From: an uncultured Candidatus Berkelbacteria bacterium
Lineage (GTDB): Bacteria > Patescibacteriota > UBA1384 > UBA12157 > JAENIV01
Reading direction: 5' to 3'
NCBI GenBank assembly: GCA_963698075.1
Contig: OY969116.1
Coordinates: 189,492 to 253,491 of the forward strand
Length of the DNA stretch: 64,000 nt
In this document: piece after piece, positions 1 to 59,298 of the stretch
Position numbering within the stretch: position 1 is the stretch's first letter
How the letters are laid out: each line of letters opens with the position of its first letter
The notes under the pieces: model-generated
Told to the model about the DNA's origin: nothing
The model's input: only the letters and a program-made list of their open reading frames with translations
Databases searched by the model: none
Position numbers and translations under genes: made by a program

Positions 1-174
1 CATAATGCTGGCATGGTGAAATCTACTAAGAATCGACGACCATTTATACTTGTTTATTCTGAAAAATTTGATAATAAAAAAGCTGCATTTAAAAGAGAGT
101 GGCATCTTAAACATCCAAAGGGTTACTTAGAAAAACTAAAGATCATAAAAAGCATGGGCCCATAGCTCAGCTGG
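1..174 (+). CDS. 3' end of a small GIY-YIG superfamily (YhbQ/UPF0213-like) gene, partial at window edge
   Basis: In-frame translation ...GMVKSTKNRRPFILVYSEKFDNKKAAFKREWHLKHPKGYLEKLKII* resembles the C-terminal half of short GIY-YIG proteins. The stop codon overlaps the start of the tRNA. Confidence 0.4.
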
Positions 175-229
175 TTAGAGCGTATGCATGGCATGCATAA
201 GGTCGCCGGTTCGATCCCGGCTGGGTCCA
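156..229 (+). tRNA. tRNA-Ala (anticodon GGC)
   Basis: Manual cloverleaf: 7-bp acceptor stem GGGCCCA/TGGGTCC with a G3:U70 pair (the Ala identity element). D-arm is GCTC/GAGC. Anticodon stem TATGC/GCATA with loop ATGGCAT gives U33-GGC-A37. T-arm is GCCGG-TTCGATC-CCGGC. Discriminator is A; CCA is not encoded. Confidence 0.85.
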
Positions 230-244
230 AAATAATATTATATT

Positions 245-306
245 AGTAATGGTAGAGCGGTCGCCTTGGCGACAGGTCCGGGGTTCGAATCCCCGTCGGT
301 CCACCA
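245..306 (+). pseudogene. tRNA-like 3' fragment (T-arm, acceptor 3' strand and ACCA; 5' half and anticodon loop aberrant)
   Basis: GGTAGAGCGG...CGGGG-TTCGAAT-CCCCG-TCGGTCC-A-CCA has a canonical T-arm and 3' end. No complementary 5' acceptor or D-stem strand exists upstream. The anticodon arm GTCGC-CTTG-GCGAC has only a 4-nt loop. It lies 15 nt after tRNA-Ala. Confidence 0.4.
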
Positions 307-318
307 CAGTGAATAATT

Positions 319-627
319 ATGAAAATAAAAGATCTTGGGATTTTGCCAAAATATTTCTCTTTGGTAGAAAGCTTCAAGGATTTTGAACCATTTGGTCCGC
401 TATCTTGGGCTGATTGGATTTTAGAAAATATTGATAATGGAAAGTTGTTATTGAAAGTAAGGTTGGATTTAGATTCGGACTACAGAGGAAAAACCAGAGA
501 AATTGATTTGAATAAGAGAAAGAAATATATGGATTTAAGTCCAGAAGGAAAAAGACAGTTACTTGAAATTTTATCAAGCAATGTCGGCAAAAGCATTGAA
601 GAAATTTTTGATTTAGAATTAAAATAG
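319..627 (+). CDS. hypothetical protein (102 aa)
   Basis: ORF with native AT-rich codon usage; no recognisable motif. Confidence 0.45.
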   Translation: MKIKDLGILPKYFSLVESFKDFEPFGPLSWADWILENIDNGKLLLKVRLDLDSDYRGKTREIDLNKRKKYMDLSPEGKRQLLEILSSNVGKSIEEIFDLELK

Positions 628-659
628 AAGAAAAAGTCAAGGAAGCCAAAAAGGGAAGA

Positions 660-1130
660 ATGGATAAAGAGTTTACTTTTACTGAATCGGATTTACAAAA
701 AACTAACGATAAATTAATAGCCAATATTTTTCTGTACGGGCTACCATTTTTGATTTATGCAATTGTAGAACTTATTAAAAATGGTTACTCTGTTGAAAGT
801 CTAATTGTTCTTTTGGGATCAATATTTTCAACAATTGGATCTTTAACTTACGCAGTCTCAATCCAGATTTACGGAGCGAGAAACAAAAAAAGTTGGTGGG
901 CTCTCCTATTAGTGCCGTTAGGATTTATACCCTACATATTTGGATGTTACCTTTGCTTTTATATGGGCTTTTGGAAACTAATAAAACTATTTTCTAATTT
1001 TTCATTTTGGGGATTAGTACTTTCTCTTGCTTCGATTATCTTTGGATACCTAATAGTTCGGACAATTTGGAAAATTTCAGAGATCGGGAGAGCTATCAGT
1101 GATAAAAGAATTAAAATTACAAATAATTAA
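660..1130 (+). CDS. hypothetical membrane protein (about 4 TM)
   Basis: Four long hydrophobic segments; 32 nt after the previous ORF. Confidence 0.5.
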   Translation: MDKEFTFTESDLQKTNDKLIANIFLYGLPFLIYAIVELIKNGYSVESLIVLLGSIFSTIGSLTYAVSIQIYGARNKKSWWALLLVPLGFIPYIFGCYLCFYMGFWKLIKLFSNFSFWGLVLSLASIIFGYLIVRTIWKISEIGRAISDKRIKITNN

Positions 1131-1296
1131 AAAATCTCTTGGAAAAATGCCGGAAAAATTACAAGAGTTTATTAAAGAAGGGAAAAAACTGACCGAAGAA
1201 ATAGATCAGTTTATTAAGAAGTGCAAATTAATATCTTAAAAGGGCAGGTCTAATATGCCATATGAGTTTCAATAGAGGAGTTAATAAAATAATATT

Positions 1297-1803
1297 ATGA
1301 CAATGATAATAGCAACATTTGTTATAGCAATTTCTTTCGTCGTATTTTTTTACCTGTTCGCTAATATTTTTGTTCCGCTACTATTTGATATCCCAGCAAC
1401 AACAAAACTTGGGCGAAAAAATATCATCAAACAGAAACCTGTATTAAAAAAATATATTATAACCATATTAGCGTGTAGTATAGTTGCATCTATAATTTTG
1501 GCACTTGCCTACTATTTTTTTATTAAATATTCGTTTGGTTTTTCCATAAGCCTATTTATTGGAGCTTGCCTAGCACTTTTGATATCTTTATGGAAAATGG
1601 TTTGGTTATTTTCCCGTTACTCGGACAACTATTTAAAATGGTTAGATTTTTACAGAAAAGATAACTCGCGTTACTTAGAGACAGCCGATATGGGTATTAT
1701 TGATGAAGCGTTAGGTGGAAAATCAGGAGAATTGGAAAAACAAACGAATAAAAAGATTGATAAAATGTTTAATAAAAAATACGGAAACCAGAATAAGGAA
1801 TAA
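1297..1803 (+). CDS. hypothetical membrane protein (about 4 TM plus charged C-terminal tail)
   Basis: Hydrophobic N-terminal 100 aa and Lys-rich tail. First gene of a tightly spaced five-gene block. Confidence 0.5.
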   Translation: MTMIIATFVIAISFVVFFYLFANIFVPLLFDIPATTKLGRKNIIKQKPVLKKYIITILACSIVASIILALAYYFFIKYSFGFSISLFIGACLALLISLWKMVWLFSRYSDNYLKWLDFYRKDNSRYLETADMGIIDEALGGKSGELEKQTNKKIDKMFNKKYGNQNKE

Positions 1804-1820
1804 GTTATTTAAGGATTTAT

Positions 1821-2534
1821 ATGAAAATATTTAATTGGCTTTCAAGCAAAAAAGACCGACAAACTTCAAGCGGTGGCAATATTACTGCCAAAAAGGTTTT
1901 AGATTTTGCTACAACATACGAGGAACTAAAACCATATTTTGCTCTCTTTGTGTATTATTTTAAGTCTGTATTGGACAGCGAAAAAGAAATTGAACAGAAA
2001 GTAAGAGAAATTCAGACCAAGACACAGCAAAATCTAAAAGAAGACCAATTATTTAAGGAATTATGGATATTACGATATGTTTGTTTATTTGTATGGTTTT
2101 TTGATCTTAAACCACCAAAAAATAAAACGGAACTTTCTGATGAGCTTTTGGTTATCAATAGCGCACTCAAAAGTGTTCTGAAAGAAAATAATAAGTTGGA
2201 CTACCTGCCTTGGCTTAAAAATGGATTGTCCGAATTTGCTGACGGAGAATTAACTTTTAATAACCTAAAAGGTTTTAGGAAAAACTTTTCAGACAAATTG
2301 GCGGACAAGATTCCGCATATTGCGTTTGATTGCACAGAAGGTAGATTGGGCGGTGAATTACACGATTTTGTTATTGAGTTGGTTATGACAACAATCCAAG
2401 AAGATCAGAAAGTTTTTAGTATGAGTGATGAAAATACTTTGACAGAGGAAGAAGCTCAAAATATCAAAAGTGCAATTATGGAAATGAGCGAAGATAGACA
2501 CAAAACGGCAGAAGATTTTATGAATTCTCTCTAA
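1821..2534 (+). CDS. hypothetical protein (237 aa)
   Basis: ORF 17 nt after the previous gene; no recognisable motif. Confidence 0.5.
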   Translation: MKIFNWLSSKKDRQTSSGGNITAKKVLDFATTYEELKPYFALFVYYFKSVLDSEKEIEQKVREIQTKTQQNLKEDQLFKELWILRYVCLFVWFFDLKPPKNKTELSDELLVINSALKSVLKENNKLDYLPWLKNGLSEFADGELTFNNLKGFRKNFSDKLADKIPHIAFDCTEGRLGGELHDFVIELVMTTIQEDQKVFSMSDENTLTEEEAQNIKSAIMEMSEDRHKTAEDFMNSL

Positions 2535-2557
2535 AAATTTATCTCAAAGAGCAAAAT

Positions 2558-3040
2558 ATGACTGATTTGGAATTACAAAAACGAGATTTACTTATGGAAA
2601 CACAAAGATGTTCTGAACTTTTTAATTCTCAAGTTTTTGCCCAACATCAAATTTTTACCCAGTCCGCTTTTATTGAGATTTTGGTTCGCTTGAATTATAC
2701 CCTTCAAGAGTTAGACAAAAAGAATAACAGAATAGTTTGGACGGACGATATTCAAACCGACCAAAATATCAAAGATATTACAGATTTAGTAAATAATTTA
2801 CGAAATGCCGCTTGCCACAGCGACAGCCCAAGAAATTATATCAGCAACTCAAGTATAAAATTTGTTTTTAATACTTTTGCCGGAAAGTGTCCGAATGCAG
2901 TTAAAATTGGAGAAAATATTTCGTTAGGCAACGAATATCAAGATGACATCGCTTTTTATTACGGAGACAAAAGAATCTACCTTGTGAGGCACATTAAAAG
3001 GTTGTTGGAAGAATTGCCTAACGAAATTAACAAGTTATAA
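2558..3040 (+). CDS. HEPN-like protein (R-x4-H motif), putative RNase/toxin-type domain
   Basis: Motif LVNNLRNAACHSD is R-N-x-x-x-H, the HEPN R-x4-6-H signature. Size (160 aa) is typical for HEPN. Confidence 0.4.
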   Translation: MTDLELQKRDLLMETQRCSELFNSQVFAQHQIFTQSAFIEILVRLNYTLQELDKKNNRIVWTDDIQTDQNIKDITDLVNNLRNAACHSDSPRNYISNSSIKFVFNTFAGKCPNAVKIGENISLGNEYQDDIAFYYGDKRIYLVRHIKRLLEELPNEINKL

Positions 3041-3107
3041 TAAATTAGGCGGCGCGCCAGTTTCACTGGCACAAAATTCGGTAATTTGGTAAAATTAAAC
3101 CACTTAT

Positions 3108-3476
3108 ATGGAAAATTGGACGCTCACTTGGACAAAACTTGCCGAGCTTAAAGAAAGTGAAGTTAATGAGCTCTCGGGAGGCATGACAGGAGTATATAGA
3201 CTGTCTTATAGATCCGAAGACGGAAATTTTTATGTCTTCTATGTCGGGCAGGCTGATGACATTAAAAGTCGTCTTTTAGAACATATTTCAGCCGCGGAAA
3301 AGAATGTATGCATAAAAAATTATATTGATAAAAAAAGTTGTTTTTTTAGATATGCCATAGTGACCAAAGATTATATCCGAGACGCAGCCGAACGACAAAT
3401 GTTTAAGCAATACGAACCAGAGTGCAACGACAAAGAACCGTATGGAAGAGATGACATAATACTAAATCTATCATAA
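3108..3476 (+). CDS. GIY-YIG domain nuclease-like protein
   Basis: GVYRLSY...YVFYVGQADDIKSRLLEH...E matches the GIY...YIG...R...E catalytic motif spacing. Confidence 0.6.
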   Translation: MENWTLTWTKLAELKESEVNELSGGMTGVYRLSYRSEDGNFYVFYVGQADDIKSRLLEHISAAEKNVCIKNYIDKKSCFFRYAIVTKDYIRDAAERQMFKQYEPECNDKEPYGRDDIILNLS

Positions 3477-3480
3477 AAAT

Positions 3481-4080
3481 ATGACTCTTACTATTTGTAT
3501 TATTGCTAAAGATGGTTTAGTGCTTGCTTCCGATAGCCGTGCAAGCTCTTTTCTGACGAGTAATGACACAGTTAAAAAAATTTTTAAATTAGATGACCAT
3601 AACGCTGTTGGAATTGCTGGAGATGGGCCTTTAGCGATGCACTTTTTCGACCTAATCTCCAAGGAATTAAATTTTAAAAATGGTATTTCATCATTAGCTG
3701 AGCAATTGAGGACCTTCGGCAAATCCAAATTTGATGAATTTTTTTCTCACCAAAGTCCTAAAGATCGCCCATTATTAAGCATTATTCTCGCTGGATATAG
3801 TCTTAGTGACAAGCCTGATATATATGTACTTAACAGCAACGATAATTTTGTTCCAAGAAAAAATCCAACTGGTTTCGAATGCGTGGGTATTCCGATTATT
3901 GCTAACTATTTACTTAACCGACTCTATGAGTCAGATATTACAACTGATCATGCTGCAGAACTTGCGACATTTTGTATAAGAGAAACGAGTTCTCAAGATA
4001 ATCGTGTTGGTGGTCCAACACAGATTGCGACTTTTTTCCAATACAAAAGAATATGCGGAATTATCAGTAGAAGATATTAG
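3481..4080 (+). CDS. HslV/proteasome beta-subunit-like Ntn-hydrolase peptidase (no HslU partner nearby)
   Basis: MTLTICIIAKDGLVLASDSRASS has Thr directly after Met1 and the D-S-R-A-S motif. GIAGDG is the GxGxG-like strand. The C-terminal half is collinear with proteasome beta/HslV. Confidence 0.6.
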   Translation: MTLTICIIAKDGLVLASDSRASSFLTSNDTVKKIFKLDDHNAVGIAGDGPLAMHFFDLISKELNFKNGISSLAEQLRTFGKSKFDEFFSHQSPKDRPLLSIILAGYSLSDKPDIYVLNSNDNFVPRKNPTGFECVGIPIIANYLLNRLYESDITTDHAAELATFCIRETSSQDNRVGGPTQIATFFQYKRICGIISRRY

Positions 4081-4224
4081 AAAAATTGAAAATAAATGTG
4101 ACCAATTCCGGTTATTACAAAAGGGCAATTTTTATCCTGAGGATAGCTCTGCAGGTTCTACAATATCAAAAGACGCAACTCCGTCCAGCCCAGGTACACA
4201 AAAGGCAAAAAAGGGGCTTAAACA

Positions 4225-4310
4225 TGGAAAAATACGATCCACAACAAATTGAAGCCAAGTGGCCCCACTTCGCTAAAGCTACGTGGGGTAAACTCCAGAT
4301 TTGGAAATAA
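4225..4310 (+). pseudogene. leuS 5'-end-like remnant (MEKYDPQQIEAKW...)
   Basis: MEKYDPQQIEAKWPHF... mirrors the canonical LeuS N-terminus and the real start MENYDFKSIENKW at 4320. It ends after 28 codons. Confidence 0.3.
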
Positions 4311-4319
4311 AGTAATAAA

Positions 4320-6721
4320 ATGGAAAACTACGACTTTAAATCTATCGAAAATAAGTGGCAAGAACGTTGGGAAAAATCTGGCGCTCATCAGGCAATCGAA
4401 CGTCCAAATGTTCCTAAGTTCTATTGCCTCGATTTCTTCCCCTATCCATCAGGCGAGGGCCTTCATGTCGGTCACTGGCGCGGCTATGTTTTATCTGACA
4501 TTATTTCTCGCTACCAAAAATTAAAGGGCAAAAATATCCTTCATCCAATGGGCTACGATGCCTTTGGTTTACCCGCAGAAAACGCCGCCATCAAAGCCAA
4601 TTCCCATCCTCAAATCTTTACCAATAAGGCCATCAAGCGTTTTCAAAAACAACTACGACAAATTGGCGCGATGTATGATTGGAATCGCGAAATTAATAGC
4701 TCTGATCCCCAATATTATCGCTGGACCCAATCGATATTTTTAAAGTTACACCAAGCCGGGTTTGGCTTATCGTCAAAAAGCGCCGGTTAATTGGTGCCCG
4801 GCCTGCCAGACTGTTTTAGCTAATGAGCAAGTCGTGGCCGGTGAATGTGAACGTTGTGGTGCCAAGACAATCAAAAAAGAACTCACCCAATGGTTTTTTC
4901 GCATCACAAAATATGCCGAAAAACTACTGAACAACTTAGATCAACTCGACTGGCCAGAAAGGACAAAAACTCTCCAGCGCAATTGGATCGGTAAATCTGA
5001 AGGGGCGATGATTAAATTCAAAATTCATGATTCACAATTTAAAGTTGATGTTTTTACCACCCGGCCAGACACTTTATTTGGCGCTACCTTTATGGTTTTG
5101 GCGCCAGAACACCCGATTGTTCAGCAAATCACTACCCCGGAAAATATTGGCGCTGTCCAAGACTATATTGAGAAAACACGTCAGGAATCAGAGCTTTTCC
5201 GCGAAACCGTTGAACGCGAAAAAACCGGAGTTTTTACCGGTGCCTATGCTATCAACCCTGTAAACAACGCCAAGATACCAATCTGGATTGCCGACTATTG
5301 TTTAATTCACTACGGCTCCGGCGCTGTTATGTGTGTCCCTGGTCACGACCGTCGTGATTTCGAATTTGCCAAAAAATTTGCATTACCCGTCGTTCAAGTA
5401 ATATCGCCAGATGGCAAAGTCAACGAGAAACTTCTGCCATATATTGAGTCGGGTTTCAATCTTAATTCGGGACAATACAACGGCCAAAAATCCGAAGACG
5501 CCAAACAGAAAATCACCGAAGATTTAAAAAAGAAGGGTTTGGCGGATTTTGCCACCAAATTCCGACTCCGTGATTGGTTGATTTCCCGGCAGCGTTATTG
5601 GGGGGCGCCGATTCCGATTATTTATTGTCAAAAATGCGGCGAAGTCCCCGTCCCGGAAAAAGAGCTTCCGGTCTTACTTCCAGAGGACGTTGAATTTAAA
5701 CCTAAAGGCGAATCGCCATTAAAACAATCAAAGAAATTTCTTAATACGACTCTGTCCGAAATGTGGCGGTAAAGCTACGCGGGAGACCGACACGATGGAT
5801 ACTTTTGTTGATTCCTCTTGGTATTTTTTACGGTTTACTGATCCAAAAAACAATAAAGAATTTGCCAGCCAAAAAGCCATCAATGTTTGGATGCCGGTTG
5901 ATCTTTATGTTGGCGGAATTGAACACGCCACCATGCACTTACTCTACGCCCGTTTTGTTACTTTGGCGCTTCACGATACTCGGGATTGTAAATTTTGATA
6001 AATTATGGTGAACCTTTCAAAAAACTTTTCAATATCGGTTTGATTTATCTTCACGGCGCCAAAATGTCAAAATCCCGTGGCAACATTGTTACCCCTGATG
6101 AGCTGGTCGCCAAATACGGTTCAGATGCCCTCAGGGGCTACGAAATGTTTGTCGGACCAGCAGATCAAGATAGCGAATGGCAAGTTTCAGGAATCACCGG
6201 TATTTATCGATTCTTAGAGAAAGTCTGGCGGTTTTTCTCACTTCAGGGCACAAAGGAAACATCAATTCAGAATAAACAAATAATCCATCGTCTGATCAGA
6301 AAAATTACTGAAGGATATTGAAAATTTCAGATTCAATACGGCTATTGCCATGCTGATGGAATCTTTTAACGATCTCGATGGAAATATTTCCACCGAGAAC
6401 CTTAAGACATTGGCAATTCTTATCTCACCATTCTTCCCCCACCTTGCCGAGGAAATTTGGGAAAAATTAGGTCAGTCAGAGTCTATTTTTACCGAAAGAT
6501 GGCCCAAGTATGATGCCGAATACCTGAAACTTAAAAAAATCAAAATCGCAATCCAGGTCAATGGTAAATTGCGAGATGTCATCGAGATTGATGTCGGTTT
6601 AAGTCAAAAAGAGGTTGAAGAAAAAGCTTTAACCGCTAAAGTTCAATTAATCATTGGTCCAAGAAAGATAGCCCGACAAATTTACGTTCCTGGAAAAATT
6701 GTCAATTTTGTGCTAGAATAA
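4320..6721 (+). pseudogene. leuS: leucyl-tRNA synthetase leuS, broken by at least 5 single-nucleotide frameshifts
   Basis: Fragments together carry the HVGH-like P-SGEGLHVGHW motif, VNWCPACQT, the CPKCGG zinc knuckle and KMSKS (AKMSKSRGN). Frame changes lie near 4770 (extra T in GGGTTT), 5770 (extra C), about 5990-6000 (two shifts) and 6316 (extra G). Confidence 0.85.
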
Positions 6722-6739
6722 ATTATTAAGGAGCAAAGT

Positions 6740-6918
6740 ATGGCCGAACCAAAAAAGAGATTAACAAGCACCCGATCAGGCAAAAGACGAAGCCAAATAA
6801 TTTCTAAAAACGAAAAATTTATCTATTTGTCCAAAATGTAAAAATCCTGCATCTACCACACCGAGTATGCCCTAATTGTGGGTTTTATAAAGGCAAAGAC
6901 ATACTTAAAATTAGCTGA
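6740..6918 (+). pseudogene. rpmF: ribosomal protein L32 rpmF, two internal frameshifts
   Basis: MAEPKKRLTSTRSGKRRSQ... then ...ICPKCKNPA... then ...PHRVCPNCGFYKGKDILKIS* are spread over three frames. Confidence 0.7.
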
Positions 6919-6995
6919 TAAACAACGCGCCAAGGAAGAAGCGCCGAAAAGACGTGCCGCCGAAGAAAAAAGTAATAAGAAAAAGAGGAGTCGAA

Positions 6996-7400
6996 GTGAA
7001 CCGTCACCTTTCACGAGTGATCTCGATGCAAACACTTTACGAGTGGGATTTTCGACCGAAATCTCAAATTGAAGAAATAAAAATTCGAAACATTAACAAC
7101 TATGATGAGGGTGCTGACGACTGACTATATTGACCAAACTATTCAAGGCGTGATTGACCAATCAAAAGGAAATTGATTGGAAATTGTCAAAGCTGCGCCT
7201 GAATGGCCCATTGAACAAATCTGCGGCGATTGATAAGACAATCCTGAGAATTGCGATATATGAAATTTTAAAATCCGAAGATGTTCCGCCCAAAGTGGCC
7301 ATCAACGAAGCTGTCGAGCTTGGTAAAACCTTTCGGTGGCGAAAATTCATCAAAATTTATCAATGGTGTTTTAGGAACTGTTTATCGTCAGCTTCCCTAA
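6996..7400 (+). pseudogene. nusB: transcription antitermination factor NusB, at least 4 frameshifts
   Basis: GTG start after RBS AGAGGAG. N-terminus NRHLSRVISMQTLYEWDF, then IDKTILRIAIYEIL...DVPPKVAINEAVELGKTF, then C-terminus FINGVLGTVYRQLP*, all in different frames. Confidence 0.7.
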
Positions 7401-7443
7401 GATTACAACCCCGACGAAGATGAATATCTTAAAAAGGAGAAAA

Positions 7444-8166
7444 ATGCCCAAAACAATCAGTCAATTGAAGAATTTGCTCAAAAAATTAGTCTACAATTTT
7501 AAAAATAAAAAACTTCTCAAACAAGTTTTTGTCCATCGTTCGTACCTCAATGAAAATATCGGCTTTGATCTCGATCACAACGAACGACTGGAATTTTTGG
7601 GTGATGCCGTTTTAGAACTCGTCGTTACCGAATATTTATTTGAGAATTTTGACAATCCCGAAGGAGAACTGACTAATTTGCGCTCTGCCCTGGTTAAGGG
7701 GCCGATGCTTTCCGAAGTTGCCAAGGATTTAGGCATGGAAAAAAATCTTTATCTTTCCCGCGGCGAAGCCAAGGCCGAAGGGAAATCGCGACAACTGATT
7801 TTAGCCAATGTTTTTGAGGCCTTGATTGGCGCCATTTACTTAGATCAAGGTTACAAGGCGGCCGTCGAGTTTGTTAAAAAGAACTTGATTTGCCATCTCC
7901 AAAAGATTATTGATGAAAAGCTTTTTCTAGACCCCAAAAGCCATTTACAAGAATTATCCCAAGAACAACTCGACGTTACCCCAGTTTATAAAGTTTTAGA
8001 AGAACACGGGCCGGACCACGCTAAAAGCTTTACTGTTGGCTGTTTCGTAAATGACCGTTTAATCGGCGAAGGCTCTGGCAGTGCAAAGCAAGCGGCTGAA
8101 AGCGCTGCCGCTTCCTCGGCATTAGAACATTGGACTGAAGTTAATTCACAAAACCGTTCGCATTAA
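7444..8166 (+). CDS. rnc: ribonuclease III
   Basis: RNase III signature ERLEFLGDAVLELVVTEYL plus a C-terminal dsRBD; RBS AAAAGGAG before the ATG at 7444; intact. Confidence 0.9.
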   Translation: MPKTISQLKNLLKKLVYNFKNKKLLKQVFVHRSYLNENIGFDLDHNERLEFLGDAVLELVVTEYLFENFDNPEGELTNLRSALVKGPMLSEVAKDLGMEKNLYLSRGEAKAEGKSRQLILANVFEALIGAIYLDQGYKAAVEFVKKNLICHLQKIIDEKLFLDPKSHLQELSQEQLDVTPVYKVLEEHGPDHAKSFTVGCFVNDRLIGEGSGSAKQAAESAAASSALEHWTEVNSQNRSH

Positions 8167-8921: not shown

Positions 8922-9611
8922 TTAGTCGCTATTTTTTGGCCAGAAAATGCGCGAGATTTCGTATGCAAGAAATAGTGCAACAAGTATGCCAATAAAAAGC
9001 ATCATTTTATTTAAGAAAGCTAAGCCGAAAAAGTAAAAAATTAAGCCCCAAAAAGTTGACCAGAAAAATTGTCCTAAAATCATCAGAATAATAAATTTTT
9101 TAAAATTAACCTTCATAATTCCTGCTGAGATGGCGATCACGGCAGCAAGATTGGGATGAACAGCTCCCCAAATGTATATCAACCAACTTTTTTCGATTCT
9201 TTGGCGCATTTTCAGAATCGATTTTTCAAGTCCATATTTTGAAAAAAACTTTGCTCCTCCAGTAAAACCAAGATAGTAATCAAGTGATAAAGCTATGATA
9301 ATCCCCAATGTCGTCCAAATAATCACCGCTGGAAGACCAATAACTTTAGCGCCGGCTAAGGTAGCTCCGAGTAAGATGATTGAAGAACCCGGAAAATATA
9401 AACCTAAAATAATAGTAGCTTCGATTATTCCCGAAATAAAAAGTATTATTATTCCATAATCTTGATAAATACCACTAATAAACGAGAGTAGTTTCCCTTG
9501 ATCGGTAAAGTAGAAGATAATTCTCAAGATTATTAAAATTATTAAGGTAATAATTAAAATTTTTCCGAGGCCATGTTTCTGTTTCATCTTACTGCCAGTT
9601 CCAATTGGCAA
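8922..9611 (-). CDS. DedA/SNARE-associated family membrane protein
   Basis: Multi-TM protein with the DedA-like motif ...LGFTGGAKFFSKYG.... Confidence 0.6.
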   Translation of the reverse strand: MPIGTGSKMKQKHGLGKILIITLIILIILRIIFYFTDQGKLLSFISGIYQDYGIIILFISGIIEATIILGLYFPGSSIILLGATLAGAKVIGLPAVIIWTTLGIIIALSLDYYLGFTGGAKFFSKYGLEKSILKMRQRIEKSWLIYIWGAVHPNLAAVIAISAGIMKVNFKKFIILMILGQFFWSTFWGLIFYFFGLAFLNKMMLFIGILVALFLAYEISRIFWPKNSD

Positions 9612-10551
9612 AACCCCATTCCAAAAGTTTTTGGCTTTCAGCCGCTGAGGCGGTAATTGAGTTCTGATTAGTATTTAAAACGACGCTTAAAATTTCGTGG
9701 CCATCTTTTTGGGCGGCGGAAACCAAACAATGACCGGCAGCATAAGTAAAACCGGTTTTAACCCCAATTGCTAAAGGATAAAAAAACGGATCATCACTTT
9801 TAACCAATCGATTGGAACTTTTGAGGGCGTGAATAATTGAACCATCAACTGAAGTAATTGTCGTCTCGGGGGTTTTGACAATTTCACGAAAAGTTTGATG
9901 GCGTAGGGCGAAACTGGCCAAAATTGCTAAATCATGAGGAGTGGAATAGCCGGCATCATCTAAGCCTGCCGGGTCGGCAAAATGAGTATTTTCTAGGCCC
10001 AATCGCCTTGCCTTACTATTCATTCTAGCAACAAAAGCGTCTTTTCCACCAAAATAAATGGCCAAAGCAGTGGCAGTATCATTCCCGGACATAATTAAAA
10101 GTCCTTTTAGTAAATTTTCGACAGTAATTTTTTCACCGGAAACTAATTTAATGTCTGAGCCCTCGACAGCTATCATCGGATAAGTAATGCTAACAACGTC
10201 GTTGAGTTTGTCTTCGTAGTCTTCTAAAACCACCACCGCCGTCATAATTTTCGTGGTTGAGGCAATCGGCATTTTTTCGTCGGCGTTTTTGGCATACATC
10301 ACGTAAGCGCTGGAAACATCAGTCAAAATCGCGGCTTTAGCGGCAATTTGAGGGTCGGAAGCTTCCAAACTCTTCTCTGGGGGCCTTACAAGGGCTTTTT
10401 TATCAGGTTGGGGTAGATTGACTTCCTCTCCGGCTACTTTGATCAAAAAAGTCGTTTTTGCCTTTGAAACCACGTTAGTTGTAATAATTAACTGCCAAAC
10501 GAGGACGATAAAAAAAAGACCACTAATTAGCCAAATAATTTTTACCTTCAT
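9589..10551 (-). CDS. D-alanyl-D-alanine carboxypeptidase (serine-type, PBP5/6 family)
   Basis: N-terminal TM anchor; SxxK (ASTTK), SxN (SGND) and KTG (KTGFT) motifs in canonical order. Confidence 0.8.
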   Translation of the reverse strand: MKVKIIWLISGLFFIVLVWQLIITTNVVSKAKTTFLIKVAGEEVNLPQPDKKALVRPPEKSLEASDPQIAAKAAILTDVSSAYVMYAKNADEKMPIASTTKIMTAVVVLEDYEDKLNDVVSITYPMIAVEGSDIKLVSGEKITVENLLKGLLIMSGNDTATALAIYFGGKDAFVARMNSKARRLGLENTHFADPAGLDDAGYSTPHDLAILASFALRHQTFREIVKTPETTITSVDGSIIHALKSSNRLVKSDDPFFYPLAIGVKTGFTYAAGHCLVSAAQKDGHEILSVVLNTNQNSITASAAESQKLLEWGFANWNWQ

Positions 10552-11978
10552 TTTTTCTTGTCAATCTTAAGATGAAGCTCTTTTAATTGTTTTTGGTCAT
10601 CAACTTCGGCCGGAGCTTTCATCATTAAATCGCGGCCATCGCCGGTTTTCGGAAAGGCAATTGTCTCACGAATTGAATCCTCGCCGGCCAAAATCATTAC
10701 CAAACGATCCAGGCCCCAGGCAATCCCGCCATGAGGCGGCACACCATATTCAAAAGCTTTGAGTAAGTGGCCAAAACGTTCCTGAATTTCTTTTTTGTTG
10801 TAGCCTAAAACTTCAAAGACCTTTTCTAATATCTTGGGGGCGTGACTGCGAATACTGCCACCACCGAGTTCTTGGCCATTTAAAATCAAGTCGTATTGGG
10901 TAGTCCGGATGGACTCAATCTCGCCTTTGAGAAACTTTTTTTTATCTTTCTTAACCGGATCAGAAAACGGATTATGAGTGAAGGTCCAATTAGCTTCGTT
11001 ATTTTTCTCAAAAAACGGAAAATCAATCACCCAGCAGAAAGCCAATTCGTCGGCATCCTTTTTATTGCGGCGTAAATCTGGTCGATCGGTATGATATTTT
11101 TTTTGAACTTCATCGAAACTGAGTACCGGAAATAGTTCTTCGGTAAGTTTTTTGTTGGGCGTAATTTTTTTAACAATCGCCTTGCCAAGTTTTTCATTAA
11201 TTTCCATGACGTCTTTTTGTTCGGCAAAACTCATCTCCAAATCAAGTTGGGTATGCTCGGGTTGGCGATCACCGCGCGGATCTTCATCGCGAAAACAACG
11301 GGCAATCTGAAAATATTTTTCCACTCCGGCAATCATGAGGAGTTGCTTAAATTGTTGTGGCGACTGCGGCAGAGCATAAAACTTTCCCGGCTGCTGACGC
11401 GAGGGCACTAAATAATCGCGGGCGCCTTCAGGAGTCGATTTAGTCAAATTAGGGGTCTCAATTTCCCAAAAACCTTCTCTATCGAGCCAGTCGCGAATAA
11501 ATTTGATCGTTTTGTACCTGAGTTCAAGGATCTTTTGCATCCGTTCGGTTCTAAGATCCAAATAGCGGTATTCCATCCGTAAATCTTCGGCAATTTTTTT
11601 GGTATCGGTCGTCAAATCAAAAGGTGGCGTGTTGGCTTCGGCTAAGATCTCGAGATTTTCTGCCTCAACCTCAACTTTTCCGGTGGCAATTTTTGAGTTG
11701 TCCATGCCCTCCGGCCGCTTTTTAACTGTACCAGATATCGCCACGACATATTCAGGCCGTAATTTATCGGCTTTCTCATGCAATTCTCCCGAAAGAACCA
11801 CTTGGACTAAACCAGAACGATCTCTTAAATCAATAAAAATCAGTTTGCCGTGATCACGGCGGGCATGAACCCAGCCGGCCAAATTGACCTTCTCGCCGAC
11901 CATTTCAGCTGTTTGAATATTTGCTACTTTCATAAATCCCTTCTTCTTTAAGATAACATAACTTTCCACAGTTGACAA
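10548..11978 (-). CDS. aspS: aspartyl-tRNA synthetase (short form lacking the GAD insertion)
   Basis: Class II aaRS motifs FRDEDPRGDRQPE, QLDLEMSF and GGGSIR...GLDRLVM. N-terminal OB fold. Probable true start at internal MKVAN (about 11933). Confidence 0.85.
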   Translation of the reverse strand: MSTVESYVILKKKGFMKVANIQTAEMVGEKVNLAGWVHARRDHGKLIFIDLRDRSGLVQVVLSGELHEKADKLRPEYVVAISGTVKKRPEGMDNSKIATGKVEVEAENLEILAEANTPPFDLTTDTKKIAEDLRMEYRYLDLRTERMQKILELRYKTIKFIRDWLDREGFWEIETPNLTKSTPEGARDYLVPSRQQPGKFYALPQSPQQFKQLLMIAGVEKYFQIARCFRDEDPRGDRQPEHTQLDLEMSFAEQKDVMEINEKLGKAIVKKITPNKKLTEELFPVLSFDEVQKKYHTDRPDLRRNKKDADELAFCWVIDFPFFEKNNEANWTFTHNPFSDPVKKDKKKFLKGEIESIRTTQYDLILNGQELGGGSIRSHAPKILEKVFEVLGYNKKEIQERFGHLLKAFEYGVPPHGGIAWGLDRLVMILAGEDSIRETIAFPKTGDGRDLMMKAPAEVDDQKQLKELHLKIDKKK

Positions 11979-22494: not shown

Positions 22495-24480
22495 TTGTCT
22501 AAACAAAATCGCCAAGTAACCCCAAGTGAATTCGAGGCTAAATGTACTAATCCTGGAGGAGAAGTCAGCCCAGAGGATCTGGCGAGACTTCTTCGAGAGC
22601 ATTTCCAGCTTGAGGGTGAAATTCAACATTTCTATCAGACTGATGTTTACTACGACACGACTTCATCACCAGATCTGCCGAGATTCCACCTAGGGGGGTC
22701 TGGTTTGAGTCTCCGTGTCCGCAGTTTCAGGGGTGGTGATTCGTATGAACTGACAGCTAAAAGGAATATCTCCGAGATCGGCGGCGTTTTCGTCAGAGAA
22801 GAAGTCCCGGCGATTATTCCGCTTTCTACGGATATCTCTTACCCGATTAACGACCAGAGGCCGAAGCTTCCACCACTCCTTATGATAAGAAAGTACATCA
22901 GCGGCAAGCTTTCACCTGTGGTTATGGTCGAGAATCATCGCATGGTCATCCGTGTTGAGATCGAGGGTCTCAAGATGAAGATCTGTCATGATACGGTTAC
23001 ATATCAAGATTTCCTGACGAACTTACAAGTACCAGATCACGAAATCGAGATTGAATTGCGGGGCCTAAATGCTCAACTGATGGAAGATGTTGTCAGACTT
23101 GTCAGGGAGAAATTCCCTAAACTGGTGGCTCAGCGCGAAGATAAGTATCGGCGCGCACTCGAGCTACTTTTCGGAGAACCGAAACATCGTTCACTTTCTT
23201 ACGTGCCACCGAGCTTTGAGATCGTCAGTCACGACGATATCGAAAGATGTCTTACCCAGGCACCTGAACCATATCGCCCACTGCTGGAGAAGCTCGTTCA
23301 AGATACCACAAGACGTTTAAGCTACAAGTCCCAACTCTCGGTCCTACCAATGCCAACTGATGTCAGACTGGCCCTTTGGCAGGAACGAACAATCGCCAAC
23401 CTGATTGAAGCCAACCCTTTCCTCTATTCTAGCGATCCAGTTCTGGCCGACAGCTGCTTTATCGCCGTTGATCTGCCAGAATCGCCTTTGAGATTCTTTG
23501 AGCATACTCGGGCTCAACATTCAATTGATGTTGCGACCTGGGCGATGACTTTGGCTCGCAAGTGCGGATTCGGAACAGATTCGATCGTTTATGTCGGTTG
23601 TGCTGGCTTAAGACATGACCTTGGACATCCCGCCCTTTGTCACAGTGGCGAAATCGTCGCTAAAGATGTGTGTGGGCTCGATCACGAAGAGAGAACCTTA
23701 CAACTAGTGGATGCAGATGCACCGATCCTATCTCGATACGACTTGGACATCGAGAAACTCAAAGCTATTCTCCGCGAAGAAGACATCGGTCAGATCCTGG
23801 CTTTGGCTGATACTCTTGCATATCTTATTCGAGATGGACAAGCCTGCGAGCGACCGCTTGATCCATCTGTTCCGCGAACAATTGCCGAACATTTTGATTA
23901 TGATTCATCTTCCAACGAGATTATCTTCGACGATGAGCTCATCAGTGCCCTTCAGACAATGCTTGATTTCCGCTTTGAGATGTTTCGGACTGTCTATTAC
24001 CATCCCTATTCCCGAATCGAAGAAGAAATGCAACAGAAAGCCATCAGATGGGCTCTCAGCCAAGGGGTGATAATCATCAGCGACCTTCTCGAGGGAGATG
24101 ATCCGACCCTTCTTAAGAAAATGGCTGAAATGGCAGCCAATGATCCGAAGCTCAAGCAACTGGTCGCCGGCTTTTTCCCGGATTACTGCGCTGTCTATCA
24201 CTACCGACCCCACATCACCTACAAAGGTGCCATTGACGCCGCCAGCATGGATAAAGCCTTAGTTGATGCCGGCTTTGACCCACTTGACTATATCATTAGT
24301 CTTCCAGACACGCGGGCTCATCGAAAAACCATCCGCGGGCGTCGCCTAAATGGCGAATCGGTTGAGCTAAGTGCCCGGAACGTCCGCAATTTCCATCAGT
24401 ATGACTCACAAACAATCATTGCTTTTGCTCCAACGCTTAAGCAACAAGATATCCTTCGAACTTTTCTTCACCCCCGCTAG
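22495..24480 (+). CDS. CYTH-like (triphosphate tunnel) N-terminal domain fused to a dGTPase/SAMHD1-type HD phosphohydrolase domain
   Basis: N-terminal SEFEAK (ExExK), LSLRVRS, ELTAKR and HEIEIEL (acidic C-terminal strand) follow the CYTH pattern. C-terminal RAQHSIDVA...LRHDLGHPALCH...DHEE matches the dNTP-triphosphohydrolase HD motifs. RBS GGAGG. Confidence 0.55.
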   Translation: MSKQNRQVTPSEFEAKCTNPGGEVSPEDLARLLREHFQLEGEIQHFYQTDVYYDTTSSPDLPRFHLGGSGLSLRVRSFRGGDSYELTAKRNISEIGGVFVREEVPAIIPLSTDISYPINDQRPKLPPLLMIRKYISGKLSPVVMVENHRMVIRVEIEGLKMKICHDTVTYQDFLTNLQVPDHEIEIELRGLNAQLMEDVVRLVREKFPKLVAQREDKYRRALELLFGEPKHRSLSYVPPSFEIVSHDDIERCLTQAPEPYRPLLEKLVQDTTRRLSYKSQLSVLPMPTDVRLALWQERTIANLIEANPFLYSSDPVLADSCFIAVDLPESPLRFFEHTRAQHSIDVATWAMTLARKCGFGTDSIVYVGCAGLRHDLGHPALCHSGEIVAKDVCGLDHEERTLQLVDADAPILSRYDLDIEKLKAILREEDIGQILALADTLAYLIRDGQACERPLDPSVPRTIAEHFDYDSSSNEIIFDDELISALQTMLDFRFEMFRTVYYHPYSRIEEEMQQKAIRWALSQGVIIISDLLEGDDPTLLKKMAEMAANDPKLKQLVAGFFPDYCAVYHYRPHITYKGAIDAASMDKALVDAGFDPLDYIISLPDTRAHRKTIRGRRLNGESVELSARNVRNFHQYDSQTIIAFAPTLKQQDILRTFLHPR

Positions 24481-51163: not shown

Positions 51164-53263
51164 TTATTTTTGTTTCCCCTCAATAATCTTTTGCGCTATA
51201 TGACGAGGCACTTCGGCGTAGTGGGAAAATTCCATAGTGAAGCTTGCCCGGCCTTGGGACATACTCCGTAAAGAAGTGGCGTAGCCAAACATTTCCGCCA
51301 AAGGCACTTCGCCGTCAATCACCTTCATTTTCGCTCGATCCGACATTTCTTTAATATGAGTTCTCTTAGAATTTAAATCCCCCAAAACATCACCCATAAA
51401 ATCTTCTGGCACGACGACTTCAATCCGCATAATTGGCTCCAATAAAACCGGATTGGCTTTTTTAACTCCGGCCTGCAAAGCAAGTGAGCCGGCAATTTGG
51501 AAGGCAATTTCCGAAGAATCAACTTCGTGAAAAGAGCCGTCGTACAAAGTTGTTGACATATCCACCAACGGATAGCCGGCAATCACGCCTCGGGTCATTG
51601 CTTCTTTAATCCCCTTTTCCACTGCCGGAATAAATTCTTTAGGAATTGTGCCGCCGACAATTTTATCGATAAATTCAAAACCTTTGCCGCGTTCCATTGG
51701 GTTTAATTCTAACCAAACATGGCCGTATTGACCGCGGCCGCCTGTTTGACGGATATATTTACCTTCAGCTTTAATACCGAGCGCTTTGATCGTTTCTTTG
51801 TAAGCAACTTGCGGGGCGCCGACATTGGCCTCAACTTTAAATTCCCGTTTCATCCGGTCAACAATAATTTCCAAATGTAGCTCGCCCATGCCGGAAATAA
51901 TTGTCTGACCGGTTTCCGGATCGCCTTTGACCCGAAAGGTCGGATCTTCTTGAGCTAAGCGATTTAAAGCAATGCCCATTTTTTCCTGATCCTGCTTGGT
52001 TTTTGGTTCAATCGCCACACCAATTACGGGCTCTGGGAAAGTAATTGCCTCCAAAATTATTGGCGATTTTTCGTCACATAAAGTATCGCCGGTAGTAGTA
52101 TCTTTTAGGCCCACAGCCGCGGCAATTTCGCCGGCAAAAACTTCGCTGACTTCTTCGCGATGTTGAGCATGCATTCTGACAATTCGGCCGATGCGTTCTT
52201 TTTTGTCTTTAGAAGAATTAAGGACATATGTGCCGGCTTTTAACATCCCAGAATAAACTCTAAAAAAAGTTAAAGTCCCAACAAATGGATCAGCAGCGAC
52301 TTTAAAAGCCAAAGCGGCGAATGGTTCGGCGTCATCGGGCGATCTTTCGAGTTCTTCTTCGGTTCTTGGCTTCCAGCCCTTGACTGGGGGAATATCGAGC
52401 GGTGAAGGCAAATATTCAACCACTGCATCCAAAACCTGCTGCACGCCTTTGTTTTTTAGGGCTGACCCACAGAAAACTGGTACTAATTTATTGGCAATGG
52501 TGGCATTTCGAGAACTTTTTTTAATTCTTCATAGGTCGGTTTTTGACCTTCTAAATATTTATGGAGTAACTCATCATCTTGCTCGGCGATTTTTTCGACT
52601 AAAATTTGATGGAGTTTTTCCGCTTTTTCTTTGAAGCTCCGCCGGGATTTCGAGTTCTTTAACATCTTGACCTTTATCGCCATGGAATTCATAAGCTTTC
52701 ATTTTCAAAACATCGATCACTTGCGAAAATTTTTCTTCATGGGCGTTGGGGAATTGGATGGCAACGGCGTTGTCAGTTAAACGTTCTTTAATTGAATCAA
52801 ATGACTTATTAAAATCTGCGCCCATGCGGTCAAGTTTATTAATAAAACAAATCCGTGGCACCCCGAATTTATCCGCCTGATGCCAAACCGTTTCCGATTG
52901 CGGCTCAACCCCGGCAACGCCGTCAAAAACCACGATCGCGCCATCAAGAACGCGCAAAGAGCGCTGGACTTCGGCGGTAAAATCAATGTGACCGGGAGTA
53001 TCGATAATATTAAAGCGAATTTTTTCTCGAGGATTATCACGGCTGGCCCAAAAACAAGTGGTGGCGGCTGAAGTAATCGTAATTCCCCGCTCGCGCTCCT
53101 GGGCCATCCAGTCCATCACGGCCGCCCCTTCGTGAACTTCGCCGATTTTATAGGTTTTGCCGGTATAAAACAGAACCCGCTCGGTCATCGTCGTCTTCCC
53201 AGCGTCGATATGGGCAATGATGCCAAAATTACGGGTTTTTTCAAGTGAATATTCTCGTGCCAT
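51164..53263 (-). pseudogene. fusA: elongation factor G fusA, two frameshifts (near 52650 and 52455)
   Basis: N-terminal [17 protein letters not shown] and NKLDR. Middle [29 protein letters not shown]. Then [36 protein letters not shown] continues to the C-terminus in other frames. A one-nucleotide deletion (CC to C) lies at about 52455. Confidence 0.85.
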
Positions 53264-53794: not shown

Positions 53795-53905
53795 CCTTAT
53801 GTCAGAGCATCGCTCGGGTATAACCTGTAGCCTGCTCGGCTAACCCACTCACCGATCAATGGCCCTATGGGGACCGGAGACGGAAAGAAGAAAGGGAGAA
53901 GTGAG

Positions 53906-54379
53906 ATGTCTAGCATTCGAGTCGTCGGACCCGACGGACGTCCTGTTTCTGAAGAGCAGTACCCCATGGATGGACCAGCCCCAAAGTTGGAAAATGGGCA
54001 GAGTTTCTCGCTCTTCGAGATCCTCTCGAACCCAATCTTCATCAATGGAACGCCACTGGAACACATCCACGGAACGGCCCGAGCAACGCTGTATCCCCGG
54101 AACACTGCCGTCTGTAAGGATCGAGTGCGCTATTTCGAGCTCAGCATCCGGTCGCGGAGCTGGGACGATATGATCGCGCTCTTCCACGAAGTCCGTAGGC
54201 TCGTCTACAGCTATGAGCCGCTAATACACAAGCCGGCGCCGCCCGCACCGCCGAAGCCGGAGGATCCGTCCTTCATGGGCGGCATCAAGTGGCTGATCCG
54301 CGGAATCTGGTATGATGTCTGCCGCGTCTGGCTCTACTGCGGCCACATCTTGGACCGAGCCTACGAAGACGGCGTGTAG
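53906..54379 (+). CDS. GC-rich hypothetical protein (157 aa)
   Basis: MSSIRVVGPDGRPV... after RBS AAGGGAG. Confidence 0.5.
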   Translation: MSSIRVVGPDGRPVSEEQYPMDGPAPKLENGQSFSLFEILSNPIFINGTPLEHIHGTARATLYPRNTAVCKDRVRYFELSIRSRSWDDMIALFHEVRRLVYSYEPLIHKPAPPAPPKPEDPSFMGGIKWLIRGIWYDVCRVWLYCGHILDRAYEDGV

Positions 54380-54403
54380 AGTAGTCAACCGACCGCTTCA
54401 CTG

Positions 54404-54427
54404 GGGCGCCCTCTTCCGAGGGCGCCC
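54404..54427 (+). terminator. GC hairpin terminator after 53906..54379
   Basis: GGGCGCCCTC-TTCC-GAGGGCGCCC, a 10-bp stem with T-rich sequence downstream. Confidence 0.55.
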
Positions 54428-54518
54428 TTCTCATATCTGAAATACTTTTTTTATTACCAGAAAAGATTCCGTCAGGAATCTTTCTTCATAATCTTATGAG
54501 ATTTTCCAATTTTAAAAA

Positions 54519-54989
54519 TCAAAATCTTGCATAGTGCGCAAAAGCCTTATTGGCTTCGGCCATTTTATGCATATTTTCTTTTTGTTTGATTGAAACGCCA
54601 GTATTGCCGTAAGCCGCTAAAATTTCGTCCGCTAAGAGTTTCTCAAAATTGGCACCTTGACCTTTGCGGGCAGTCTTAATCATCCAGCGCATCGCCAAGG
54701 TTTGGCCGCGATCGCCACCAACCTCAACCGGTACTTGATAAGTCGCCCCACCGATGCGGCGGGGTTTGACTTCCAATAAGGGAGTGGCGTTCTTTAAGGC
54801 CGCTTCAAAAATCTCGAGCGGTTCTTTACTGGTTTTATCTTTTAAAATGTCAAAAGAGCCATAAACAAGCTTTCGGGCGGTTTCTTTCTGCCCCCTCAGC
54901 ATCACTTTATTGATAAACTTGGCCACTGTCACCGATTGGTATTTGGGATCCGGGTTCAATTTTCTTTTTTTGGCTCTTTTACCTCTCAT
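54519..54989 (-). CDS. rpsG: ribosomal protein S7
   Basis: 156 aa; order rpsL-rpsG. Confidence 0.9.
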   Translation of the reverse strand: MRGKRAKKRKLNPDPKYQSVTVAKFINKVMLRGQKETARKLVYGSFDILKDKTSKEPLEIFEAALKNATPLLEVKPRRIGGATYQVPVEVGGDRGQTLAMRWMIKTARKGQGANFEKLLADEILAAYGNTGVSIKQKENMHKMAEANKAFAHYARF

Positions 54990-54991
54990 CT

Positions 54992-55474
54992 TTAACCTTC
55001 CGTAGTTACCGGCTGCTCAGGAGAAGCAGCCGGAGCGGCGACTTTTCTTTGAACACCCGCCGCGCCCTTTTTCGTCCCATACTTAGAACGACCTTGAAGC
55101 CGACCTTCAACCCCAGCGGTATCGAATTTTCCTCTAACAATATGATAACGAACTCCAGGAAGGTCCTTGACTCTACCGCCGCGAATCAAAACCACAGCGT
55201 GTTCTTGCAAATTATGGCCTTCTCCAGGAATATAGGCAGTCACTTCTTGGCCCGAGGTTAGTCTCACTCGAGCAATTTTTCTTAGAGCGGAATTAGGTTT
55301 TTTGGGCGTCACCGTTGTCACTTTCACGCAGACGCCACGTAAAAACGGCCGACCTTTGACAAACTCAACTGGTCGGTTTTTTAAAAAATTAAAACCACGC
55401 CGCAGTGCCGGCGTTTTTGTCCGCTTAATCTTTGACTTTCTTCCTTTTTTTAAAAGTTGTTGAACAGTAGGCAT
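54992..55474 (-). CDS. rpsL: ribosomal protein S12 (C-terminally extended)
   Basis: [11 protein letters not shown]...KKPNSALRK...; classic S12. Confidence 0.9.
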
Positions 55475-55489
55475 AAATTTAGTTGTTAG

Positions 55490-59298
<3,809 letters not shown>

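Follow-up and report, generated by a model that had tools for sequence, protein, structure and literature searches.

A 64,000-nt stretch of contig OY969116.1 (assembly GCA_963698075.1, from an uncultured Candidatus Berkelbacteria bacterium), hereafter called the window, carries at 3481–4252 on the plus strand a gene for a proteasome-family peptidase with an N-terminal threonine nucleophile (Thr1), and analysis of this gene and its relatives revealed that it occupies the second position in a cassette of two genes that is strictly conserved, the first gene (3108–3476, plus strand) encoding a minimal GIY-YIG nuclease of 122 aa. The original prediction had described a stand-alone HslV or proteasome-beta homologue without an AAA+ unfoldase nearby. 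The gene proved not to stand alone, and the absence of an AAA+ partner was borne out both in the window and in the related loci. The role then suggested, that of an effector or maturation protease, is a reasonable guess. We favour a reading of the cassette as a mobile accessory module for conflict or addiction, in which the nuclease would be controlled by the peptidase or would target it, and we put the probability of this functional assignment at about 0.45, a little short of even odds.

Wherever enough upstream sequence was available to judge adjacency, a GIY-YIG gene lay directly upstream of the peptidase gene and on the same strand, namely in the window, in 20 distinct loci, in L038 (the locus of a closely related cassette) and in four farther relatives (P0192, P0195, P0197 and P0198; profile E-values down to ~1e-43). 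The GIY-YIG stop codon is 4 nt before the peptidase ATG in the window; in the relatives the two genes are separated by a few to ~10 nt, abut or overlap by up to 4 nt. An all-against-all comparison of the flanking ORFs (open reading frames) recovered GIY-YIG as the sole shared family and no AAA+ ATPase. Likewise, a six-frame translation of the 64-kb window contained no AAA+-type Walker A motif, the only P-loops in real genes being those of EF-Tu and EF-G, and none of the ten large window ORFs scanned with Pfam was an ATPase. The lack of an AAA+ gene agrees with the study of Fuchs, Alva and Lupas (2021), which catalogued 22 new clusters of proteasome homologues and reported neither an AAA+ partner nor an informative genomic context for the orphan homologues (PMC8665760). 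No report of a proteasome homologue paired with a GIY-YIG protein was found in the literature, the defence and toxin–antitoxin angles included; the obligate pairing and the behaviour of the cassette as a mobile unit are absent from the searchable literature.

The peptidase gene had also been placed as the last cistron of an accessory operon, but its only conserved neighbour is the GIY-YIG gene at 3108–3476, and leuS follows on the same strand. The five upstream ORFs (319–3040) were considered as further members of the operon and rejected, since none of them is conserved beside the cassette. Similarly, the 159-aa protein encoded upstream of the L007 cassette was compared with the 160-aa ORF of the window as a possible counterpart and found to be unrelated. 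DNA similarity between loci spans the two genes and at most ~25 nt upstream of them, beginning at ~3082–3107 for the closest cassettes and at a position of at least 3187 for farther ones.

Still farther peptidases (P0199, P0202 and P0210) have no nuclease gene and a small downstream ORF instead. These ORFs of 61–76 aa are found at 841–1071 in L030 (P0199), 1470–1700 in L031 (P0210) and 755–940 in L036 (P0202), and in L031 and L036 they overlap the peptidase gene at its end; the pair in L031 is located at a prophage end, adjoining a serine recombinase and an S24 repressor. The peptidase superfamily may here have another partner, encoded by the small ORF.

Peptidase family and reading frame

The peptidase matched the Pfam proteasome family (PF00227; T1 in MEROPS) with an E-value of 5.1e-20 and 72.4 bits against a cutoff of 22.4, and the alignment paired residues 4–183 with profile positions 7–187 of 189, that is, with the whole domain. 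The NCBIfam models of archaeal and bacterial beta and alpha subunits scored far under their equivalog cutoffs (54.7 versus 224). Residues Thr2, Asp18, Lys33 and Gly47 align with Thr1, Asp17, Lys33 and Gly47 of the M. jannaschii beta subunit and are invariant in 21/21 cassettes, as are Gly136 and Gln172. The family match and the catalytic residues together uphold the earlier assignment to the proteasome-family Ntn (N-terminal nucleophile) hydrolases. When aligned with a T. acidophilum beta sequence, Asp173, conserved in 16/21 cassettes, corresponded to Asp166. There is no propeptide, the threonine following directly on Met1, and removal of Met1 would expose the nucleophile. The Thr1 peptidase is probably active.

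Sequence searches of the PDB, made both with the single sequence and with a profile, returned archaeal 20S beta and alpha subunits at the top with equal E-values of ~2e-9, and HslV was not among the best 60 matches. An AlphaFold2 model of the homologue P0002 (mean confidence, pLDDT, of 82.7) contained the full alpha-beta-beta-alpha Ntn core and a C-terminal helix at residues 196–207, with low confidence for residues 212–236. The invariant residues Lys214, Phe217, Tyr218, Pro219 and Glu220 fall inside this low-confidence tail, and the conserved motif K-x2-F-Y-P-E, which follows the C-terminal helix, is predicted to be disordered. Neither the PDB searches nor the comparison with the P0002 model supported the HslV label, and the peptidase is assigned to the 20S/Anbu-like branch of proteasome homologues and not to HslV. 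An exhaustive profile search yielded 31 clusters (at 50% identity) at E≤1e-30, 232 at E≤1e-10 and 839 at E≤1e-3. All of the twenty relatives taken from the top of this list begin with M-T/S-L, and most of those listed are ~230–260 aa long. In databases the family goes under the generic name 'proteasome subunit', and the orphan homologues catalogued in 2021 probably already included it.

The ATG-started ORF at 3481–4080 on the plus strand encodes 199 aa with MTLT at the N-terminus (full start MTLTICIIAKDGLVLASDSRAS, with GIAGDG further on), and the hallmarks originally noted, a Thr after Met1, DSRAS (residues 18–22) and the GDG loop (within GIAGDG, residues 44–49), are all present in its translation. 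The ORF is therefore real, but the length of 199 aa and the end at 4080 turned out to be artefacts of a frameshift. Among the homologues listed, 120/120 were ~235–237 aa long and covered 93–95% of the 199-aa query, and homologue lengths overall ranged from 235 to 250 aa. The conserved C-terminus of the homologues, SNTKEYAELSVEDIRKIENKCDQFRLLQKGNFYPED, is encoded in the +1 frame from ~4036 to the stop at 4252, and the tblastn match was divided over two frames (3481–4035 and 4022–4177) with a break at ~4030. The closely related peptidase gene of L038, which comes from a short-read assembly, is intact (product P0121, 250 aa). Between the cassette DNA of L038 and that of the window, which are 92.8% identical, the sole frame-breaking difference is one extra T in a homopolymer at 4032–4037 on the plus strand (T6 in the window, GCGACTTTTTTCC, versus T5 in L038, GCGAC-TTTTTCC). 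The +1 frameshifted gene thus runs in frame 1 from 3481 to 4035 and in the next frame to the stop codon at 4250–4252, and removing one T gives a corrected product of 256 aa with the full conserved C-terminus.

Essential genes in the window are also split by single-base indels (insertions or deletions), namely leuS (4320–6721, in five pieces), nusB (7154–7423), fusA (51164–53263) and rpoC (~53800–58990). The two of them that are also on L038, leuS and nusB, are intact there, with products of 799 aa and 156 aa. The fusA ORF at 51164–52441 is without the GTPase domain, the P-loop of which is found in a separate ORF at ~53215, and rpoC is split into many pieces. The window has the look of an assembly rich in indels, probably a long-read one, and because the neighbouring essential genes are broken in the same way, the frameshift of the peptidase gene is most likely an assembly error. 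These results correct the annotation record: the product of 199 aa is an artefact of the frameshift, and 'HslV' is the wrong family label.

The GIY-YIG partner and the spread of the cassette

The 122-aa partner exceeds the Pfam threshold for GIY-YIG, and its structure model (pLDDT 95.2) has the GIY-YIG fold, with the GIY-YIG domain of UvrC as the closest structural match and a resemblance also to the catalytic domains of I-TevI and T4 EndoII. The GIY-YIG core is extended by conserved strands at the N- and C-terminus (W4, L6, W8 ... N120). In the window copy the motif of Tyr30, Tyr45, Arg55, His59, Glu95 and Asn107 is complete, and these residues are invariant or nearly so in the main clade. 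Five of the 21 cassettes (L017, L018, L024, L025 and L026) carry the replacements Y30F, Y45F, R55E and H59L/I with Glu95 and Asn107 kept, and Arg55 is replaced in 10/21 cassettes overall. The GIY-YIG genes of this five-member sub-branch lie upstream of a match near position 6001 or 2253, and the catalytic residues of the accompanying peptidases are unchanged. The nuclease of the sub-branch may be inactive or work differently. Because the nuclease residues are lost in 5/21 cassettes while the peptidase site is invariant, the peptidase looks like the constant catalytic core of the pair, and the GIY-YIG protein may act as an adaptor in the lineages that have lost the motif.

Both genes gave nonsynonymous substitution rates (dN) of 0.08–0.34 with the synonymous rate (dS) saturated, and dN/dS values of ~0.04–0.16, and both are under strong purifying selection. 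The pairwise identities of the peptidases and of the nucleases correlated with r=0.79 over 210 pairs; the two genes co-diverge, and the cassette travels between genomes as a unit. It was found in 19 of 185,579 species-representative genomes. Most of the carriers are Patescibacteria (Saccharibacteria, Lloydbacteria, Paceibacterota and Staskawiczbacteria), and a few are MAGs (metagenome-assembled genomes) labelled Planctomycetota, Bacteroidia, Chitinophagaceae, Gammaproteobacteria or archaeon. Some of the labels outside Patescibacteria may be binning artefacts, because an identical 235-aa peptidase (P0013) occurs in three Lloydbacteria MAGs and one 'Alphaproteobacteria' MAG of one study. The GC content of the cassette is 31–41% and is under that of the flanks in most loci, by up to 13 points. 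Relatives of the cassette were found neither in IMG/VR viral contigs nor in GenBank phages, and PLSDB plasmids contained none except an archaeal psmA; a phage or plasmid origin was rejected on these grounds.

In the window the cassette measures 1.2 kb (3043–4263), corresponding to a blastn block against positions 113–1335 of L038. The left edge of the block, 3 nt past the stop codon of an unrelated upstream ORF, opens a leader and probable promoter region (3043–3107, plus strand); promoter-like sites, which are consensus matches only, are found at 3066–3095 and, just outside the leader, at 3014–3041. The right edge is formed by a duplicated 5' end of leuS, MEKYDPQQIEAKW (4225–4263, plus strand), which comprises the first 13 leuS codons (39 nt) in a donor-like form. 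The peptidase gene of L038 overlaps at its end with the leuS start (MGKYDHQKIEAKW), and the window's own leuS start (MENYDFKSIENKW, 4320–4358) is ~95 nt past the donor-like copy. The two leuS 5' copies look like a recombination scar of cassette acquisition. Since the cassette is 92.8% identical to that of L038 and the adjacent leuS-rpmF-nusB-rnc region is only 73.4% identical, and since the donor-like leuS copy was retained, the comparison points to an exchange of the cassette by recombination at one and the same site, separately from its flanks.

Neighbourhoods and possible function

A gene for a restriction-modification enzyme is located immediately upstream of the cassette in three loci (MmeI-type in L001, MTase-Mrr in L013 and TaqI_C in L029); genes of the NYN, SocA/Panacea, caspase-like or PIN-like kind are found near the cassette in other loci, and an HNH-AP2 gene of the homing type adjoins the cassette in L012. 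A Pfam census of 141 neighbour proteins gave a housekeeping mix together with some restriction-modification, MADS and SspH matches, and is at most suggestive of an enrichment in defence islands. In L007 the cassette comes after the gene of the 159-aa protein (9140–9619), PIN-like by eye, and a second GIY-YIG fragment, of 70 aa, follows (11058–11270). A serine recombinase gene 4 kb upstream of this cassette suggests a mobile-element context.

We propose that the GIY-YIG nuclease and the peptidase act together as a putative complex, in which the ATP-independent peptidase would control the nuclease by activating or destroying it; alternatively, the peptidase may use the GIY-YIG domain as a DNA-directed partner. 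Candidate contact elements are the F-Y-P-E tail of the peptidase and the strands added to the nuclease core. The cassette would then serve, for example, as an anti-phage, abortive-infection or toxin–antitoxin-like system. We are more tentative about the specific proposal that an ATPase-free Thr1 peptidase and an obligate GIY-YIG partner constitute an undescribed two-component system, which we consider somewhat less likely than not. Such a system could take the form either of a protease-gated nuclease module for immunity or addiction or of a DNA-targeted proteasome-like complex with the GIY-YIG protein as its regulatory or targeting subunit.

Several observations weigh against a conflict or addiction module. 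Many cassettes are found among housekeeping genes and not in defence islands, being placed between dnaN and PBP, rpsI and grpE, or rpoC and ftsK, or beside rpsF, prfC or leuS. PADLOC 2.0 gave no match for the peptidase and, for the nuclease, only partial matches of ~40 residues to PDC-S14 (E=8e-7). In the alignment with the T. acidophilum sequence, Ser129 and Ser169 of the 20S beta subunit are replaced by Ile135 and Val176. A simple model with the nuclease as the effector cannot hold everywhere, because the canonical GIY-YIG residues are replaced in one sub-branch. Lastly, should the extra T be real, the frameshifted window copy of the peptidase might be inactive.

The cassette might instead be a selfish homing element, in which the GIY-YIG protein acts as a free-standing homing endonuclease, alleles without the cassette are cut by it and receive a copy during repair, and the peptidase is a cargo or helper. 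We regard this as unlikely, although it would account for cassettes between conserved essential genes in several genomes, for the higher identity of the cassette than of its flanks at the same site upstream of leuS with the 39-nt donor-like copy, for the likeness of the nuclease model to I-TevI and T4 EndoII, for a GC content low relative to the hosts and for the HNH-AP2 neighbour in L012. Patescibacterial genomes consist mostly of housekeeping genes, however, so such insertion sites say little, and the 122-aa protein is without a DNA-binding domain of the kind found in homing GIY-YIG enzymes. Moreover, the supposed cargo is better conserved than the nuclease and has an invariant active site, the pair is still linked through divergence to ~35–50% identity and persists in the sub-branch where the nuclease motif has decayed, and the cassette was not found in the viral collections searched. 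A role in DNA damage, in which both proteins would act on DNA–protein crosslinks or protein-capped DNA and a GIY-YIG protein related to UvrC and Slx1 would recruit the peptidase, fits the best structural match of the partner. A universal peptidase site beside nuclease residues that are dispensable in one sub-branch also fits a DNA-binding adaptor, and the close spacing or overlap of the genes suggests co-expression. Yet a patchy, horizontally transferred distribution over so few species is unlike a repair function, and the absence of linkage to other repair genes adds to making this role improbable.

For the window's own genome, there is a small chance that the cassette is a decaying remnant without current function and the peptidase gene a true pseudogene. 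The deposited +1 frameshift removes the conserved C-terminal 50–70 residues, and the record for the contig gives the 199-aa form (P0001). Against this, the essential leuS, nusB, fusA and rpoC are broken in the same manner, with leuS and nusB intact in the short-read L038, only one base of a homopolymer is affected, both frames are otherwise open and the conserved C-terminus is present once the frame is corrected. The proteasome fold and the catalytic residues would also suit a conventional HslV- or 20S-type protease served by a remote HslU or other AAA+ unfoldase, or an ATP-independent housekeeping peptidase with a coincidental neighbour, and BPH and the uncapped 20S proteasome are precedents for ATP-independent action (PMC8665760, PMC5777263). 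We give very little credence to either version, as neither the sequence nor the fold of the protein resembles that of HslV, no AAA+ gene was found in any locus or in the window, the GIY-YIG pairing in every locus with upstream sequence cannot be coincidence and so rare a cassette is unlikely to have a housekeeping role.

Either form of the two-component system, if true, would give the first functional context for an orphan bacterial proteasome homologue. The cassette offers a lead on the role of bacterial proteasome homologues without an ATPase (Anbu, BPH and the 22 groups of 2021). The partner belongs to a class of known biochemical activity, the GIY-YIG nucleases, is strictly conserved and is contained with the peptidase in a 1.2-kb unit that can be transferred to a model host, so that binding, nuclease cleavage or activation, toxicity, addiction and phage protection are directly testable. 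The cassette is also of interest in that it occurs mainly in Patescibacteria, whose repertoire of defence systems and mobile elements is poorly known.

Two further features of the window were observed. Right past tRNA-Ala(GGC) (155–230), a low-GC stretch (231–3042; 32% versus 44% for the remaining window) carries five ORFs of unknown function on the same strand, and two of them (660–1130 and 1297–1803) apparently encode membrane proteins, being hydrophobic by eye. The stretch contains no integrase gene, and integration at tRNA-Ala was rejected, as a search of 1–8000 for att-like direct repeats of the tRNA end gave none; the stretch may be a genomic islet of its own, distinct from the cassette. 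At 22495–24480 the window encodes a 661-aa protein with CYTH and HD-associated domains (Pfam E-values of ~1e-8), an unusual architecture unrelated to the cassette.

Comparison with known systems

The peptidase shares with the group II homologues of Fuchs et al. (2021; the Anbu-like WPH and PMI proteins) a length of ~235–260 aa, a Thr1 without propeptide, the retained Asp17, Lys33 and Gly47, the C-terminal S12/H5 elements and a similarity to both 20S alpha and beta subunits. Both are without an AAA+ partner, occur in bacteria including candidate phyla and carry signs of horizontal transfer, and the wider family here (232 clusters, E≤1e-10) includes members with pore-loop insertions like those of PMI proteins. 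What sets the present family apart is its obligate GIY-YIG neighbour, whereas no informative context was reported for the homologues of 2021. The family is probably located in or near the WPH or PMI clusters; OGZ26396.1 and WP_040339656.1 are the published representatives for PMI-3 and WPH. PMI-3 is a candidate, and OGZ26396.1, which represents it, belongs to the genome series that also contains P0013; going by the description of this cluster, the family appears to fit it in size, nr70/nr90 ratio and source dataset. Unlike the description of PMI-3, however, the P0002 model has no H1/H2 or H3/H4 insertion.

With HslV (ClpQ) the peptidase has in common a Thr directly after Met1 without propeptide, the Ntn fold, Lys33 and Gly-rich loops. 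In contrast, HslV is ~175 aa long, lacks S12/H5 and is encoded next to hslU, whereas the peptidase is ~250 aa long with H5 and a tail, and no hslU was found in the window. Alignment by hhalign with an HslV sequence extended over the first 80 residues only. The Anbu operon reportedly (in work attributed to Valas and Bourne, 2008, and Fuchs et al., 2017) includes ATP-grasp, alpha-E and transglutaminase-like genes. These were neither among the neighbour families shared between loci nor among the 25 families listed in the census of 141 neighbours, and the sequence identity to Anbu is just 16%. Identity with BPH was considered and rejected, because the peptidase has neither a close structural or sequence similarity to BPH nor the compact subunit of group I.

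Archaeal and actinobacterial 20S beta subunits align with the peptidase collinearly over the full length, with equivalents of Thr1, Asp/Glu17, Lys33, Gly47 and, putatively, Asp166. The differences from them are the absence of a propeptide, the apparent Ile and Val at the positions of Ser129 and Ser169 and the scores below the NCBIfam equivalog cutoffs; no second proteasome-family gene, which would encode an alpha subunit, was found in any locus.

Bacterial gasdermins with an adjacent protease and toxin–antitoxin pairs provide a further comparison. The cassette differs from such defence operons in having a proteasome-type Ntn hydrolase in place of a caspase-like or other known defence protease, and in lacking a sensor domain and a PADLOC match. 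It resembles protease-plus-effector operons and toxin–antitoxin pairs in being a compact two-gene cassette with closely spaced or overlapping genes on the same strand, in which the gene for a potentially toxic effector is followed by that for the peptidase, and in its patchy distribution, its horizontal transfer and its occasional restriction-modification or toxin–antitoxin neighbours.

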